From: Coprobacillus sp. CAG:698
GTDB taxonomy: Bacteria; Bacillota_I; Bacilli_A; ML615J-28; CAG-698
Direction of reading: 5' to 3'
DNA length: 64,000 nt
Assembly: GCA_000431235.1 (NCBI GenBank)
Contig: HF988734.1
Location: 92-64,091, forward strand
Shown here: positions 59,393 to 64,000 of the stretch, in pieces
How the letters are laid out: every line of letters starts with the position of its first letter
Position numbering within the stretch: position 1 is the stretch's first letter
Made by a program: the position numbers and the translations under genes
Notes under the pieces: model-generated
Seen by the model: the letters and a program-made list of their open reading frames with translations, nothing else
Told to the model about the DNA's origin: nothing
The model's database searches: none

Positions 59393-59410
59393 TAAACAGG
59401 AGGTATAAAA

Positions 59411-59638
59411 ATGGCAAACAATTTTCGTGGTAAAAGAAAAAAGACATGCTATTTCACTGATAATAAAATTGAAAAAATAGATTGGACAAACGTTGAAATT
59501 TTAAGAAAGTTTGTTTCTGATCGTGGCAAAATTCTTCCTCGTCGTATAACAGGAACTAAAGCTATTTATCAAAGAGAATTAGCAGTAGCTATTAAACGTG
59601 CTCGTCATATGGCATTATTACCATTCGTTAGAGAGTAG
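59411..59638 (+). CDS. rpsR: 30S ribosomal protein S18.
   Basis: Conserved S18 core. Confidence 0.9.
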
Positions 59639-59660
59639 TTTAATCATAAACAAAAAACAA

Positions 59661-59686
59661 ATGTCCTTGAAAAAGGACTTTTTTTG
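59661..59686 (+). terminator. Terminator of the rpsF operon.
   Basis: GTCCTT-gaaaa-AAGGAC followed by TTTTTTT. Confidence 0.6.
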
Positions 59687-59779
59687 TATAGACTTTCGAT
59701 GAGGAAAAAAGTGCTTAACAATTACTTTAATCTTATGACGATTATAATCATAAAATATATTAAGAAATAAAATTAATGA

Positions 59780-59808
59780 TTTTATTTTTAATAATAATGT
59801 GATATAAT
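59780..59808 (+). promoter_or_regulatory. Promoter with a TGTGaTATAAT extended -10.
   Basis: The same 13-mer as the efp promoter. Upstream of RBS AGGTGA and gdpP. Confidence 0.4.
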
Positions 59809-59830
59809 AGTTATGAATAGTTAATTATAG

Positions 59831-61822
59831 GTGAAATATATGAAAAAAATTAAAATACTAAATACTATAGAATACTTGTTTTTAATGTTTTCTAGTATAG
59901 CGGTAATTATTCTAATCGTATTTAACCAAAATAGATATGTTATTTTTGGCTTATTCATAATAATAGGTTTACTATTAGGCATAATAATATCCTCAACAAT
60001 AAACCTAAAAAGGCAAAAACAAATAGATTGGCTAGAGGAAAGGATAAAACTAACAAATAGTATAGCTTATCGTGTAAAAATAGCTGGTGAAAAAGCTTTT
60101 ACAGAAATACCCTTAGGAATCATTGTTTTTGATAATTCCTACAAAATTGAATGGGCAAACAATTATGCTAAAGAAATATTTTTATCACCTTTAGTTGATC
60201 GAAAACTTTCATTAGTTGATACTGATTTAGAAGTAAAAGCAAGAGCGCTAAAGAACTTTACAATTACTATATATGGTCATGAGTATGAAGTAGATGTTTT
60301 ACATGATGATAATATAATGTTTCTAACAAATCGTACTGAATTGTTTGAATTAGAAAAAAAATACTTTGATAGAACTCAAGCTGCCGCAATCATAAGCTTA
60401 GATAACTTTGAAGAAGCCTTATCAACAGTTGATGCCCAAGCAAGAGCGATGACAGTGAGTGATATAATAGGTATATTAAGTGATTGGTGTCAAAAGTTTG
60501 GTCTCTTTATAAGAGGTTATTCTGAAAAGCAATATTTAGTTCTAATGAGCAGAGAGCAATTAGAACATGTAATGCAAGAACAATTTGATGTAGTTGATGC
60601 TGTAAATGAGTATTGTAATAATCAAGGCTTGAAAATATCTATTTCTATAGGTGTAGCCTGTTTCGATGTACAAATAACTGATTTAATGGCCAAAACAAGT
60701 GATATGCTTGATTTAGCCTTAAATAGAGGTGGAAACCAAGCAACAGTTTATATCGATGGAAAGATTAGATATTTCGGAGGCAAAGAAATAGGTTCAGAAA
60801 TAAGACTTCCAATATATGTAAGAATGAAAACTGAAGATTTATGTGAACTTATTGAAAAATCTCCAGATGTAATGATAATGGCACATAGTAATTCAGATAC
60901 AGATGCTTTTGGAGCTTGCGTTGGTTTACTAAAAATATGTATGGCTTTAGGCAAAGAAGCTAAAATCGTAATCGATGAAGACTTATGTGATGCAACAGTC
61001 AAAAAGATATTAAACGAAATTAGAGCTGAACATATCGGAATGAATGATTACTTCATAACATCAAGTAAAGCAATATCACAAATCACAAGTGAAACACTAT
61101 TGATTTTGGTTGACGTCCAATATGAAGGTAATTTAATCAGTCCTAAGCTTTACCGAAAAGCTAAAAAAATTGCGATTATCGATCATCATCGTAGTAGCAG
61201 TAAAGCTATTTCTAACTATCAATATATGTACAATAAAACAACATCATCTTCATCAGTTGAATTAATTGTTGAGATGTTTGATTATATCGATGGTGAGATA
61301 AATATAACAAGTATAGAAGCATCACTTATGCTTCTAGGTATATTAGTAGATACAAATAATCTAATTTATCGAACTTCGGCACAAACATTTGCTGTAATGA
61401 GTAAACTGCAGTTGTACGGAGCTGAAATGTCAAAAGCACAAAATTATTTACGTGAGGATGCAGATTCATATAATAAACGAATTGCTATTTTATCATCATT
61501 AAATATTATAGATGAAAAGTATGGAATTTGTTTATGTGATGTTGAAAATATATATACTCGTCCTTTTATTGCTAAAGTTGCTGATAACATCATAGCATTA
61601 AATACTGTAAAAGCTGGTTTTTGTATAGGCAGAATATCGGAAGACACAATTGGTGTGAGTGCTCGTAGTTTCGACTTTAACGTCCAACTAATAATGGAAC
61701 AACTTGGTGGTGGTGGTCACTTTAATAATGCTGCAACCCAAATCAAAGGTGCAACAATAGAAGAAATAGAAAGAAAATTAATTGAAATTCTCAGAAAAGA
61801 TGAAAGCGTTGGTGAAGAAACA
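59831..61822 (+). CDS. gdpP: Cyclic-di-AMP phosphodiesterase GdpP (2 TM, PAS-like, degenerate GGDEF, DHH and DHHA1 domains). It has no stop codon and runs in frame into rplI.
   Basis: DHH motif IMAHSNSDTDAFGA, IDHH, and DHHA1 GGGGHFNNAAT. The ORF continues in frame into MKIILVKDV... Confidence 0.8.
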
Positions 61823-62272
61823 ATGAAAATTATACTAGTAAAAGATGTAAAAGGAAAAGGTAAAGCCGGAGATATTATTGATATCCCATCAGGACATGCA
61901 AACTATTTGATTAAAAATAAACTTGCGATAGTTGCAAGTACTGATAATTTAAATGAATACAAAAAGAAAAGTGAACAAGATAAAATTGACGCTCAAAATT
62001 TGCTTGATGAAATGAGAAAATTAAAGGAATTCTTAGAGTCTCATCCAGTAAGCATTGGTGTAAAAGTTGGTAAAGAAGGAAAATTATTTGGTTCAGTAAG
62101 TAATAAACAAATTGTTGATGAAATTAAAACACAATATAATGTTTCTTTAGATAAAAGAAAAATTCTTTTTGAAAAAGATATTGATGCTTTAGGAACATAT
62201 ACTATTCCAATTCAATTACATAAAGAAGTAATAGCTAATATTACACTATATGTTGTTGAGAAAAAGAGTTGA
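61823..62272 (+). CDS. rplI: 50S ribosomal protein L9.
   Basis: 149-aa L9 signature MKIILVKDVKGKGKAGDI. Internal RBS GGTGAAG, 7 nt before the ATG. Confidence 0.85.
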   Translation: MKIILVKDVKGKGKAGDIIDIPSGHANYLIKNKLAIVASTDNLNEYKKKSEQDKIDAQNLLDEMRKLKEFLESHPVSIGVKVGKEGKLFGSVSNKQIVDEIKTQYNVSLDKRKILFEKDIDALGTYTIPIQLHKEVIANITLYVVEKKS

Positions 62273-63615
62273 TTATGGCAGAAGCAAAAATTCCTTGCAG
62301 TCGTGAAGCAGAAAATTATGTTCTTGGAAGTATACTAATAGATGAAGAACTAGCAAATGAGTTTTGTTCGTCATTAGGCGAAATAGATTTTTATATCAAA
62401 AAGAACAAATATGTTTTCAATGCTTTAAATACTTTGTATTTAAAAAGAGAGCCTATTTCTGTAATTAATGTTATTGAGACTTTAAAAGCTCAAGGAAATT
62501 ATGAACAAGTTACAGAAGCATATCTTTTTGAATTGACAGATATGATACCTACAACAGTTAATATTGAATCATATATTCAAGTTTTAAAAGAAAAGTCAAT
62601 CGAGAGAGAACTTTATTATGAAACATTAACAATTGGAAGTAAAGTATTAGCTGGTGAAGACAATGTAAGTGACTTACTTGCTTTAAGTGAAAAAAGAATA
62701 AAAGAAATAGCTGATAAACAAAGTAGTGGTAATATGCAAACTATATCTTTGTCTATGGATAAAGTATTTAATATTATCGATGAAAACCGACATAAAGATG
62801 GTTCTTTAATAGGCCTTGATACAGGATATGAAAAGTTAAATGAACTTACACTTGGATTTCAACCCGGTGAACTAATTATTTTAGCGGCAAGACCAGGTAT
62901 AGGTAAATCAGCTTTAGCTTTAAACATTGGTCGTAAGGTTTGTATGGATCACGGAAAGCATGTTGCCTTCTTCTCACTAGAAATGAGTAGTGAGCAAATA
63001 CTTATGCGTTTATTAAGTATGGCTTCTAACGTACCTTTATCAAAAATAAGAAGTGGTAACTTAGAAGAAGATGATACAACAAAACTATTAGGAGGTCGTA
63101 TTTCTTTAGATAATTTGAACTTTTATTTAGATGTTACATCTAGTAATAGTTTAGAAGATTTAAAGATACAATGCCGTCGCTTACGTCGTGAAAATAAATT
63201 AGATTTCATTATTGTTGACTATTTACAACTTCTAAATGTAAATAAAGACAATACTAAAGGCAAAACTATGTCACGTTATGAAGAAGTTACAATATTATCA
63301 CGTTCTTTAAAACTTCTAGCGATGGAATTAAATGTTCCAATTCTTGCTCTATCGCAATTATCACGTGCACCTGAGACAAGATCCAAAAAAGAAGGCAAAG
63401 GACCTGTATTATCTGATTTGCGTGAATCAGGAAGTATTGAACAAGATGCTGATATTGTAATGTTCTTATATGCTGAAGATAAAACTGATGAAAAAACAAA
63501 GAGCCGTGAAGTCATGCTTGATGTAGCTAAAAACCGTCAAGGTGAAACAGGCACTGTATATCTCTTCTTTAGAGCAGAGTGTACATTATTTGAAAATTAT
63601 ATAGGTAAAGAGTGA
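62269..63615 (+). CDS. dnaB: Replicative DNA helicase.
   Basis: Walker [10 protein letters not shown]. DnaB N-terminal and C-terminal domains. Confidence 0.9.
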
Positions 63616-63620
63616 TTATT

Positions 63621-64000
63621 ATGTTAGATAGATTAAAATTAATCGAAAGTAAATATCAAGAAATAAATGAAAAACTTTCAGATCCTGAAGTTGTAAAAGA
63701 TGTAAAAAAATACACAGCCCTAATGAAAGAACGAAGAGATAAAGAAAAAATTGTTGAAGTATACCATGAGTATAAAAACGTTCTAAACCAAATAGAGGAT
63801 CTTAAAATACTTGTTAAAGACGAAAATGAAGAAATCAAAGAACTTGCAGAAATGGATTTAGAAGAAGCAAACAAAAATAAAGTTGAATTAGAAGAAAAAC
63901 TTAAAATAATGTTAATACCTAAGGATCCTAATGATGACAAAAATGTTGTTTGTGAAATCCGTGGAGCAGCAGGTGGCGATGAGGCAAATATTTTTGCTGG
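63621..64000 (+). CDS. prfA: Peptide chain release factor 1 (3' end off the window).
   Basis: My own translation gives [24 protein letters not shown]...[15 protein letters not shown], which is the RF1 N-domain. It is absent from the supplied ORF list because it runs off the window end. Confidence 0.8.

Follow-up and report, generated by a model that had tools for sequence, protein, structure and literature searches.

The gene for GdpP, a predicted c-di-AMP phosphodiesterase, runs in frame into rplI, the gene for ribosomal protein L9, in the window analysed here, a 64,000-nt stretch of contig HF988734.1 of Coprobacillus sp. CAG:698. Comparison with related sequences indicates that this GdpP–L9 fusion is real and not an assembly error, and that it is evolutionarily old and typical of the Acholeplasma/Phytoplasma/Izemoplasma branch of the Mollicutes, where it is the norm. 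We consider it likely that the single open reading frame (ORF) makes two products, the GdpP–L9 fusion and a free L9, with both under selection.

The fusion reading frame and its surroundings

The reading frame is open from a GTG at 59,831 to position 62,272 of the forward strand (813 codons), and no stop interrupts it at the junction, where the GdpP C-terminus (...LRKDESVGEET) leads straight into the L9 start (MKIILVKDV). ORF reading and Pfam searches bear out the earlier note on this point, which had described gdpP as reading in frame into rplI over 813 codons. The true gdpP start is probably the ATG at 59,840, because homologues with 100%, 91% and 81% identity are all 810 aa long; the closest homologues also share the N-terminus MKKIK, and the GTG taken as the start in the ORF list lies within the Shine-Dalgarno (SD) sequence of this ATG (Table 1).

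Table 1. Features of the gdpP–rplI–dnaB unit (positions within the window)
Feature	Position	Strand	Remarks
Candidate extended -10 promoter element, TG-n-TATAAT, of the gdpP–rplI–dnaB unit	59800..59808	+	direct sequence reading
SD of gdpP, AGGTGA	59829..59834	+	contains GTG 59831 (ORF-list start); serves ATG 59840
gdpP–rplI fusion ORF	59840..62272	+	810 codons plus stop; predicted full-length product 91.3 kDa
GdpP part	59840..61822	+	two N-terminal hydrophobic helices, PAS, degenerate GGDEF, DHH/DHHA1
Linker E-S-V-G-E-E-T between last DHHA1 helix and L9	61802..61822	+	predicted disordered
Internal SD-like motif GGTGAAG	61811..61817	+	encoded by linker Gly-Glu-Glu codons
Probable internal L9 start codon ATG	61823..61825	+	conserved start residue
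rplI (bL9) part	61823..62272	+	149 codons plus stop; predicted free product 16.7 kDa, pI 9.2
dnaB (replicative helicase), third gene of the unit	62276..63615	+	candidate ATG 62276 from sequence reading

The candidate -10 element lies downstream of a terminator-like hairpin (59663–59678), which comes after rpsR. A promoter scan of positions 59400–63700 for an internal rplI promoter returned 25 sites against 24.4 expected by chance and is therefore uninformative in DNA of 28% GC. An Rfam scan of the whole window gave no match, and thus no known leader or riboswitch, and an rRNA search of the whole window found none. At the downstream end, the ORF-list start of dnaB is a TTG at 62269 that overlaps the L9 stop, and the gdpP–rplI–dnaB order is shared with relatives. 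The window as a whole has a GC content of 28.4%, and its genes read well in code 11.

Domains and predicted structure of the two parts

The encoded protein is a predicted c-di-AMP phosphodiesterase of the GdpP type with intact catalytic motifs, to which an L9 of canonical predicted fold is joined. Pfam profiles detect PAS_GdpP, GGDEF_GdpP, DHH and DHHA1 (PF21370, PF24898, PF01368 and PF02272), in this order, in the GdpP part, and Ribosomal_L9_N (PF01281, residues 665–710, E = 9e-15) and Ribosomal_L9_C (PF03948, residues 727–810, E = 1.6e-24) in the L9 part, all above the curated cut-offs. GdpP chains in the PDB (9n0l, E = 2.5e-66, and 5xsi) match residues 88–660 of the fusion. The GdpP part carries two predicted N-terminal transmembrane helices: hydrophobic 19-residue windows start at residues 6–13, 20–24 and 30–40, and an AlphaFold2 model places helices at residues 2–27 and 32–89. 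The DHH (448–450) and GGGH (624–627) motifs are intact, and both are invariant in 96 aligned fusion proteins.

Bacillus stearothermophilus L9 (1div) aligns, over its full length from its own residue 1, to residues 662–809 of the 810-aa protein, and the internal Met aligns with the first residue of every solved bacterial bL9 chain, none of which has an N-terminal extension. In the AlphaFold2 model of the 810-aa fusion (mean pLDDT 86.6), the L9 module adopts the canonical fold, with a strand at 661–666, a helix at 701–734 and a C-terminal beta domain. Linker residues 655–659 (DESVG) have a pLDDT below 50, as low as only one other segment of the model. Alignment of free, separate and Met-type L9 sequences gives a set of columns with at least 90% conservation (M1-K2, the GK loop, G-x-A-N, G..G..F-G and D-K-x-K), and the L9 of the window retains them all.

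Conservation and origin of the fusion

The same in-frame junction is found in more than 200 protein clusters. Among the matches listed, 119 of 120 homologue clusters with 50–100% identity, drawn from NCBI, JGI, ENA and Logan assemblies, consist of proteins of about 810 aa that have the full set of six domains, and 42 full-length representatives at the 50%-identity level extend across the junction. The identical 810-aa protein occurs in NCBI, ENA and Logan, on three contigs. With decreasing identity the tail of GdpP changes from RKDESVGEET (91%) and RKDESDGEET (81%) to RNQESVGEEN (65%), and the in-frame junction persists across many independent assemblies of relatives whose identity ranges from 100% to as little as about 30%; the length of the linker differs between lineages by up to 5 residues, in frame in every case.

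Among the 80 reference (species-representative) genome loci listed, gdpP and rplI are fused in 17, which belong to Acholeplasmatales, Anaeroplasmataceae, Mariniplasma, two Ca. Phytoplasma species and some Izemoplasma, and include the complete genomes of Ca. Phytoplasma mali and Ca. P. australasiaticum. The arrangement GdpP–L9–dnaB is seen in L001–L012, L015, L016, L018, L023 and L024, and also in L091 and L092. The statement of the earlier note that gdpP and rplI are adjacent but separate in Bacillota thus holds for ordinary Bacilli and Clostridia (63 of the 80 listed loci) and fails for the Acholeplasma/Phytoplasma/Izemoplasma lineage.

The unfused loci suggest how the fusion may have come about. 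Of the 63 unfused Bacillota loci listed, 21 have an ATGA in which the gdpP stop and the L9 start overlap, and in 9 the stop abuts the start; in 32 of the 63 the two genes share a frame and are one substitution short of fusion. The sample of 61 loci from ordinary Bacilli and Clostridia contains none that has drifted into fusion. Some Izemoplasmatales (L013, L014) have a stop one codon ahead of the L9 ATG. The ribosome-binding site of rplI lies in the 3' end of gdpP, and the two genes are co-expressed (PMC6398277, PMC3711813). Bacillota as a whole couple the translation of these two genes, and the fusion most likely arose in such a pair when the stop codon of gdpP was lost.

These comparisons make it barely conceivable that an indel in the A-run at 61795–61798 (placed at 61794–61797 in the earlier note) or a miscalled stop conceals a normal gdpP stop overlapping the L9 start. 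Such an artefact would have some features in its favour: the +1 frame does end in ...KKQ* within an ATGA, as the earlier note had read it, the ATGA overlap is the commonest arrangement in unfused Bacillaceae (the 21 of 63 listed loci), and some metagenome contigs of low coverage (L082, L084) do carry the ORF in broken form. However, the +1-frame ATGA is a by-product, because any L9 that starts with Met-Lys (universally ATG-AAA) carries a TGA in that frame, and the tail KDESVGEET is conserved in frame in relatives. The junction is kept over the whole range of identity in hundreds of independent assemblies as well as in complete genomes, and the identical protein recurs in three databases and on three contigs, so that the comparison of orthologous junctions proposed in the earlier note decides for its reading of a real fusion. 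The two other homopolymer-A frameshifts that it had reported from the window were not recovered: a strict frameshift screen of the window, in which absence is not proven, gave no candidates, and Pfam analysis of five overlapping or adjacent ORF pairs in the window (ecfA1, ecfA2, ecfT, truA, an M20 peptidase, a methyltransferase and nucleotidases) found distinct genes and no split genes. Programmed frameshifting at the A-run was also considered and set aside; the run is not a canonical slippery heptamer, and the stretch is unconserved at the nucleotide level across the family.

A conserved, probable internal start for L9

The internal start codon and its SD appear to be conserved beyond what the protein sequence needs, and together they suggest internal initiation of a free L9. 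The GGTGAAG that the earlier note had recognised as an SD of L9's own is present, its GGTGA core ending 7 nt ahead of the ATG. With an anti-SD duplex energy of -7.8 kcal/mol, it ranks in the top 3.7% of the 347 internal in-frame ATGs in the window and lies near the median of first-ATG gene starts (-8.3). All 18 fused ORFs have an equivalent motif that ranks within the top 0.3–6% of their codon positions (median 1.2%), and 15 of them hold no other in-frame start with an equally good SD. Of 20 loci, 18 show less structure at the junction than on average over the ORF, a modest signal. The lineages compared in both rank tests, for SD and for structure, lack phylogenetic independence. The SD of the window (GGTGA type) is among the weakest in the family, with that of Ca. 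P. mali weaker still (-6.6).

Of 214 fusion clusters, 197 have Met as the first residue of L9 and one has Val; the other 16, all from the tandem clade described below, have Lys. At the DNA level, the first L9 codon of the 17 fused genome loci listed is ATG in 14 and GTG in 3 (L009, L010 and L016, where the Val was confirmed as GTG). All 18 loci of the Met/Val type have a single L9 region, and in single-L9 genomes Val is the sole replacement of Met1; Ile or Leu was never found. A change from ATG to ATA is the easiest in AT-rich DNA, yet Ile is absent at this position.

The start is accompanied by a linker that stays open. A single substitution would turn an average of 6.8 of its last 12 codons into a stop, yet among the more than 200 clusters, whose linkers vary in length, no clean stop reversion was found. 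A search of close relatives for L9 alone returned L9-sized matches at 49–72% identity. Four of these that had looked like free rplI paralogues (P0122, P0128, P0129 and P0131) proved in context to be damaged fusion ORFs, two in which an in-frame nonsense codon interrupts DHHA1 or the GGGH motif and two with frameshifts on contigs of 0.46x and 2.3x coverage; P0125 and P0134 begin 16 nt from a contig end and are uninformative on a separate rplI, and P0143 and P0147 led to the tandem clade.

A clade with a fusion and a free rplI

The metagenome contigs L087, L088, L089 and L090 carry, immediately downstream of the fusion, a free rplI of 148 aa that has an SD of its own, and the fused L9 copy has Lys at position 1 and no SD. 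In the nearest Met-type relatives (L091, L092), dnaB follows the fusion directly, with no rplI between. The internal start and SD are therefore lost exactly where a separate rplI is present. The tandem clade is probably one evolutionary event, which gives this correlation an effective n of about 1; its genomic contexts cover L087–L090, with six further start-less representatives outside that comparison, and a metagenome scan around one start-less representative (P0400) returned only fragments without the junction.

dN/dS in the tandem clade is 0.12–0.21 for the fused L9, 0.14–0.20 for the free L9 and 0.09–0.15 for GdpP, ratios that are approximate because dS (0.9–2.2) is near saturation. These values indicate that the fused L9 domain is under purifying selection although a separate rplI exists, and the fusion protein itself therefore appears to be functional. 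The tandem-clade fusions belong to the same family as the window protein (43–46% identity) and have the same neighbours. Their fused L9, however, lacks several universal residues (Met1, the Gly of G[YH]A and the FG of GKLFGS), whereas the window has one L9 region, which keeps the start codon, the SD and the universal L9 residues, in place of a fusion with a second, free rplI.

The dual-product model and its alternatives

We propose that initiation at ATG 59840 would yield a 91-kDa protein, a membrane-anchored GdpP phosphodiesterase whose short flexible linker leads to a complete L9 module, and that initiation at ATG 61823, from the internal SD, would yield free L9 of the ordinary kind (16.7 kDa). 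Selection appears to act on both products. From the sequence patterns we infer internal initiation, accumulation of the full-length protein and a link between GdpP and the ribosome; our literature search on the fusion found no protein-level or ribosome-profiling report. The L9 module might, as a guess, dock GdpP to the ribosomal L9 site or to rRNA. A wider reading, which we hold as possible but doubtful, is that the L9 module is a working ribosome- or rRNA-binding domain that places GdpP at or near the L9 site of the 50S subunit and couples c-di-AMP turnover physically to the translation apparatus. On this reading, the nearly universal adjacency of gdpP and rplI in Bacillota, and their coupled translation, would stem from a functional partnership of GdpP and L9 that turned covalent in this lineage; the ORF would be truly dual-coding, and duplication would have let two L9 copies divide its roles in at least one clade.

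Release of L9 by a protease from a full-length protein that is the only translation product would fit a linker that is exposed and disordered in the model, and cleavable ribosomal-protein fusions do exist in eukaryotes, where the ubiquitin fusions UBA52 and RPS27A are cleaved proteolytically. We regard such processing as very improbable here, because cleavage requires neither a start codon nor an SD, yet both are conserved; the linker has no conserved peptide motif beyond the Gly and acidic residues that encode the SD, and one L9 per GdpP would tie the output of L9 to that of gdpP. It is easier to imagine, though still unlikely, that free L9 and GdpP catalysis are what matter and that the L9 tail is a harmless by-product of the lost stop. 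One substitution suffices for this in the half or so of unfused loci already in frame (32 of the 63 listed), a short disordered linker may leave GdpP undisturbed, and the stop retained in L013 and L014 shows that both states are viable. Against this, the fused L9 of the tandem clade, unneeded as a source of L9, stays intact at the low dN/dS given above (at saturated synonymous sites), no clean stop has been regained in more than 200 clusters with about 7 of 12 linker codons one step away, and none of the 61 ordinary loci sampled has drifted into the fused state. We also think it improbable that internal initiation is absent and the only L9 is the C-terminal domain of a membrane-bound GdpP, whether the tethered L9 then serves the ribosome or ribosomes largely go without L9. 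The ORF is continuous, the linker is flexible, and L9 is dispensable in some Mollicutes, having been lost in hemoplasmas and M. penetrans (PMC4014445). This reading nonetheless leaves unexplained the restriction of residue 1 to Met or GTG-encoded Val, the persistent SD in the linker and the loss of both exactly upon arrival of a free rplI; solved bL9 chains carry no N-terminal extension, and a low-abundance signalling enzyme would be unlikely to match ribosome stoichiometry. Production of both the fusion and a free L9 is the reading we prefer.

Relation to known systems

The window adds a further member to a fusion family that is known and annotated but unstudied. Table S3 of Grosjean et al. 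(2014, PLoS Genet; PMC4014445) marks RplI as 'fusion' for A. laidlawii PG-8A (ACL_0196) and three phytoplasmas (PAM012, PA0149 and ATP_00177), in the table cell only, with the partner unnamed and no discussion in the main text. The window fusion resembles these in being the same gene, in its order of GdpP then L9 and in its position ahead of dnaB, and Ca. P. mali (L023) and Ca. P. australasiaticum (L018) are fused in the same frame with ATG at L9 residue 1. The window protein is about 32% identical to the phytoplasma fusions; its nearest named relatives among the matches listed, at 50–54%, come from metagenome-assembled genomes labelled Acholeplasmataceae, Acholeplasmatales or 'Bacilli bacterium'. 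Public annotation (NCBI, JGI) calls the 810-aa proteins '50S ribosomal protein L9'. The A. laidlawii gene presumably bears the name 'Bifunctional signaling protein', which our literature search did not return, and searches on ACL_0196, PAM012, ATP_00177, PA0149 and AYWB_006 found nothing relevant.

The ordinary gdpP–rplI–dnaC/dnaB operon of Bacillota (Bacillus, Staphylococcus, Streptococcus, Clostridia) has the same three genes in the same order, with documented co-transcription and the rplI SD inside the 3' coding end of gdpP, often over the same Glu-Gly-Gly/Glu residues. A stop separates the two proteins in all 63 listed unfused loci, whereas the window has none, and ribosomes translating gdpP would therefore continue into L9. 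In Escherichia coli, infB (IF2 alpha/beta), clpB and cheA (long and short forms) have in-frame internal starts that yield a full-length and a C-terminal product. The GdpP–L9 ORF is like these in being one ORF with an internal SD and start in the coding sequence and nested products that share a C-terminus. It differs in that the short form there is the same protein cut short, while here it would be a complete, unrelated and universally conserved ribosomal protein, for which internal initiation is read from sequence.

Implications

The junction is correct as it stands, and the sequence of the window should not be 'repaired'. The label '50S ribosomal protein L9' hides a predicted c-di-AMP phosphodiesterase and probably a nested gene. 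gdpP lies immediately upstream of rplI across Bacillota, and the literature we found reports only their co-localisation and co-expression. That the two proteins have been kept covalently joined for so long speaks for c-di-AMP degradation being functionally linked to the ribosome, as does the retention of an L9-like domain on GdpP after a separate rplI arose. If our reading is true, the family would provide a clean bacterial case of two unrelated proteins made from one ORF through an internal start, and the tandem clade a case of subfunctionalisation after duplication of a dual-product gene. The link between c-di-AMP and the ribosome would be directly testable in the cultivable Acholeplasma laidlawii.

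A single reading frame for GdpP and L9

In the window, gdpP, which encodes a c-di-AMP phosphodiesterase, and rplI, which encodes ribosomal protein L9, share one open frame on the + strand (59831-62272; 813 codons if the GTG start is taken), and the gdpP tail ...LRKDESVGEET continues into the L9 start MKIILVKDV without a stop. Pfam places PAS_GdpP, GGDEF_GdpP, DHH and DHHA1 within residues 1-655 and, C-terminal to these, Ribosomal_L9_N and Ribosomal_L9_C at residues 665-810, all above curated thresholds. Reading frame and domain content thus bear out the earlier note, which had gdpP running into rplI. Translation of gdpP almost certainly begins at ATG rather than GTG; because the GTG lies within the Shine-Dalgarno (SD) sequence of that ATG and homologues have 810 aa, the gene most likely comprises 810 codons. 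The SD proposed for L9 itself is present, but the AAAA run, first placed at 61794-61797, lies at the position tabulated below.

Coordinates of features of the fusion ORF and of the tandem loci
Feature	Position	Strand	Remark
gdpP start ATG	59840	+	810 aa, length equal to closest homologues
SD AGGTGA of ATG 59840	59829-59834	+	encloses GTG at 59831
A-run	61795-61798	+	
Internal SD-like motif GGTGAAG	61811-61817	+	
L9 start codon ATG	61823-61825	+	
Fusion plus free rplI	L088:551-3447; L089:3501-6408; L090:2482-5391		also L087

The predicted full product (91.3 kDa) has two hydrophobic helices at its N-terminal end, intact DHH (448) and GGGH (624) motifs, an acidic GdpP part (computed pI 5.1) and a basic L9 part (16.7 kDa, computed pI 9.2). 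An AlphaFold2 model (alignment of 96 sequences; mean pLDDT 86.6, pTM 0.43) gives the L9 module its canonical fold, with pLDDT below 50 in two segments only, one being the linker (residues 655-659) that precedes L9 Met 662. Comparison with the PDB found no solved chain containing both halves.

Distribution of the fusion

An indel in the A-run, hiding a normal gdpP stop, had been put forward as the alternative to a real fusion. It is ruled out by relatives that keep the junction tail in the present frame (RKDESVGEET, RKDESDGEET and RNQESVGEEN at 91%, 81% and 65% identity), and the real-fusion reading stands. A whole-ORF search listed 120 clusters from NCBI, JGI, ENA and Logan assemblies, 100% down to 50% identical to the window ORF; 119 have all six domains, and most are 805-832 aa long, with three entries shorter or partial.

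The comparison of orthologous junctions that the earlier note called for was made by classifying 80 species-representative genome loci individually. The genes are fused in frame in 17, including the complete genomes of Ca. Phytoplasma mali and Ca. P. australasiaticum, MAGs labelled Acholeplasmatales, Acholeplasmataceae, Anaeroplasmataceae, Mariniplasma, Mycoplasmatota or Bacilli, and Ca. Izemoplasma sp. B36 (L006) and one Izimaplasma MAG (L024). A stop is present in 63/80, comprising two Izemoplasmatales and otherwise Bacilli, Clostridia, Haloplasmataceae and Erysipelothrix. Both states therefore occur within Izemoplasmatales, where the stop-separated loci (L013:7948-7953 and L014:7948-7953) have the gdpP stop one codon ahead of the L9 ATG. 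Two contigs look mis-binned: L016 (CAVFGN010000018.1), binned as Alistipes finegoldii, carries a fused locus of Mollicute type, and L019 (CAYSIC010000052.1), assigned to Atopobium, matches a Ligilactobacillus MAG (L021) exactly at the junction. When 1.84 billion cluster representatives were searched exhaustively with HMMER, 60 matches reached E<=1e-30, 42 of them full-length with the junction crossed in one aligned stretch. Judged from these counts, the fusion family is moderately sized and confined to one clade.

Within the Acholeplasma/Phytoplasma/Izemoplasma lineage the gene is normally fused, and the fusion had been annotated before. In Grosjean et al. (2014; PMC4014445) the RPLI entries of Table S3 read 'fusion' for Ca. 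P. mali (ATP_00177), Ca. P. australiense (PA0149), onion yellows phytoplasma (PAM012) and A. laidlawii (ACL_0196); the main text leaves this undiscussed. Public annotation labels GdpP-L9 proteins '50S ribosomal protein L9', and our literature search found no paper analysing the fusion, what it does or the products made from it. Neither dual-coding evidence for the ORF nor evidence for an own function of the L9 tail on GdpP appears to have been described earlier.

Origin from a coupled gene pair

Of the 63 unfused loci, 21 show an ATGA overlap between gdpP stop and L9 start, and in nine the two codons abut; in 32 the genes share a frame, so that one substitution would be enough for fusion. The rplI SD sits in the final gdpP codons, often as Glu-Gly-Gly or Glu-Gly-Glu; gdpP and rplI are co-expressed, and gdpP deletion mutants retain the gdpP 3' end so that the rplI RBS survives (PMC6398277; PMC3711813). 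Taken together, these arrangements indicate that the fusion is a stop loss within a tightly coupled pair. In the window, a terminator-like hairpin with a T-run lies 3' of rpsR (59663-59690) and a candidate extended -10 element, TG-n-TATAAT, about 30 nt ahead of gdpP (59800-59808), which suggests a gdpP-rplI-dnaB transcription unit apart from rpsF-ssb-rpsR. Rfam gave no family at gathering score on either strand of the whole 64-kb window, and no rRNA, tRNA-like, riboswitch or ribosomal-protein-leader match.

Probable internal initiation of free L9

The codon for L9 residue 1 is ATG in 14 and GTG in three of the 17 fused genome loci; of 214 fusion clusters, 197 have Met there, one has Val and 16 have Lys, and the 42 divergent HMMER representatives include 31 with Met and five with Val. 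Ile or Leu is never seen in these three sets, although they are the usual replacements of Met and ATG to ATA is favoured in AT-rich DNA. Such a pattern is, on sequence grounds, the signature of a start codon rather than of a structural Met. Most fused loci have a strong SD within the linker codons (aaggagga, ggaggtggag, gggagga). When codon positions are ranked by anti-SD pairing, the junction comes within the top 0.3-6% (median 1.2%) in 18/18 fused ORFs, 15 of which have no other in-frame start with an equally good SD, and in 18/20 loci the junction mRNA shows less structure than the average over the ORF. The window motif, at -7.8 kcal/mol, is weaker than that of most fused loci; among 347 internal in-frame ATGs it nevertheless ranks within the top 3.7%, and it lies near the median of first-ATG gene starts. 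Solved bacterial bL9 chains all start at the residue aligned to the window L9 Met. The ORF is thus probably dual-coding: full-length GdpP-L9 would be made from the gdpP start, and free L9 from the internal SD and ATG.

A tandem clade with fused and free L9

A search for a free rplI paralogue found two contigs, L087 and L088, in which a complete fusion has a free rplI (148 aa, preceded by a separate SD) directly after it, then dnaB. Their fused copies have Lys at L9 residue 1 and a linker without Gly and without SD (caagaagcagta AAA AAA). The 16 Lys clusters form one sub-clade (at least 75% identity to L088, in a search seeded with its protein). A prediction set beforehand, of free rplI in Lys-type loci and none in the nearest Met-type, agreed with 4/4 look-ups: L089 and L090 (Lys-type) have free rplI, and in L091 and L092 (Met-type) dnaB directly follows the fusion. 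All 18 Met/Val-type loci have a single L9 region. In six further representatives (P0382, P0388, P0394, P0400, P0445, P0478) the residue at L9 position 1 is incompatible with a start codon, and the FGS of the universal GxLFGS motif is missing from each; they are very divergent (25-44% identity to each other) and may have undergone the tandem-clade event independently.

If the fused L9 domain were no more than a by-product, it would have decayed or been truncated by a stop. In the tandem clade its dN/dS is 0.12-0.21, against 0.14-0.20 for free L9 and 0.09-0.15 for the GdpP part (dS 0.9-2.2), ratios by which it is under purifying selection, pointing to a selected fusion protein. The fused copies are altered at residues otherwise universal in L9 (Met1, Gly in G[YH]A, FG in GKLFGS) and conserved among themselves, and the free copies retain all universal L9 residues; this looks like subfunctionalisation after tandem duplication. 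Elsewhere in the family, a single substitution would turn about seven of the final 12 linker codons into a stop, and linker length varies by up to five residues, in frame throughout. No clean reversion to separate genes was found in the fusion family.

Four other L9-sized relatives, considered as free L9, proved in context to be fusion ORFs broken by a nonsense codon or a frameshift; for three of the four contigs coverage is 0.46x, 2.3x and 3.8x. In the metagenome contig L083 (3.8x) an in-frame TGA takes the place of the leading Gly in the invariant GGGH motif (L083:2551-2553), and in L081, another single metagenome contig, an in-frame TAA lies in the last DHHA1 helix (L081:2417-2419). Linker and L9 are still conserved downstream of both stops, which stem from sequencing error or else from very recent gdpP inactivation with L9 expressible from the internal start.

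The window gene joins an already annotated fusion family as a further member. From the selection pattern, the L9 tail appears to have its own function on GdpP; the leading guess, a tentative and rather doubtful one, is that it may dock GdpP to the ribosome or rRNA.
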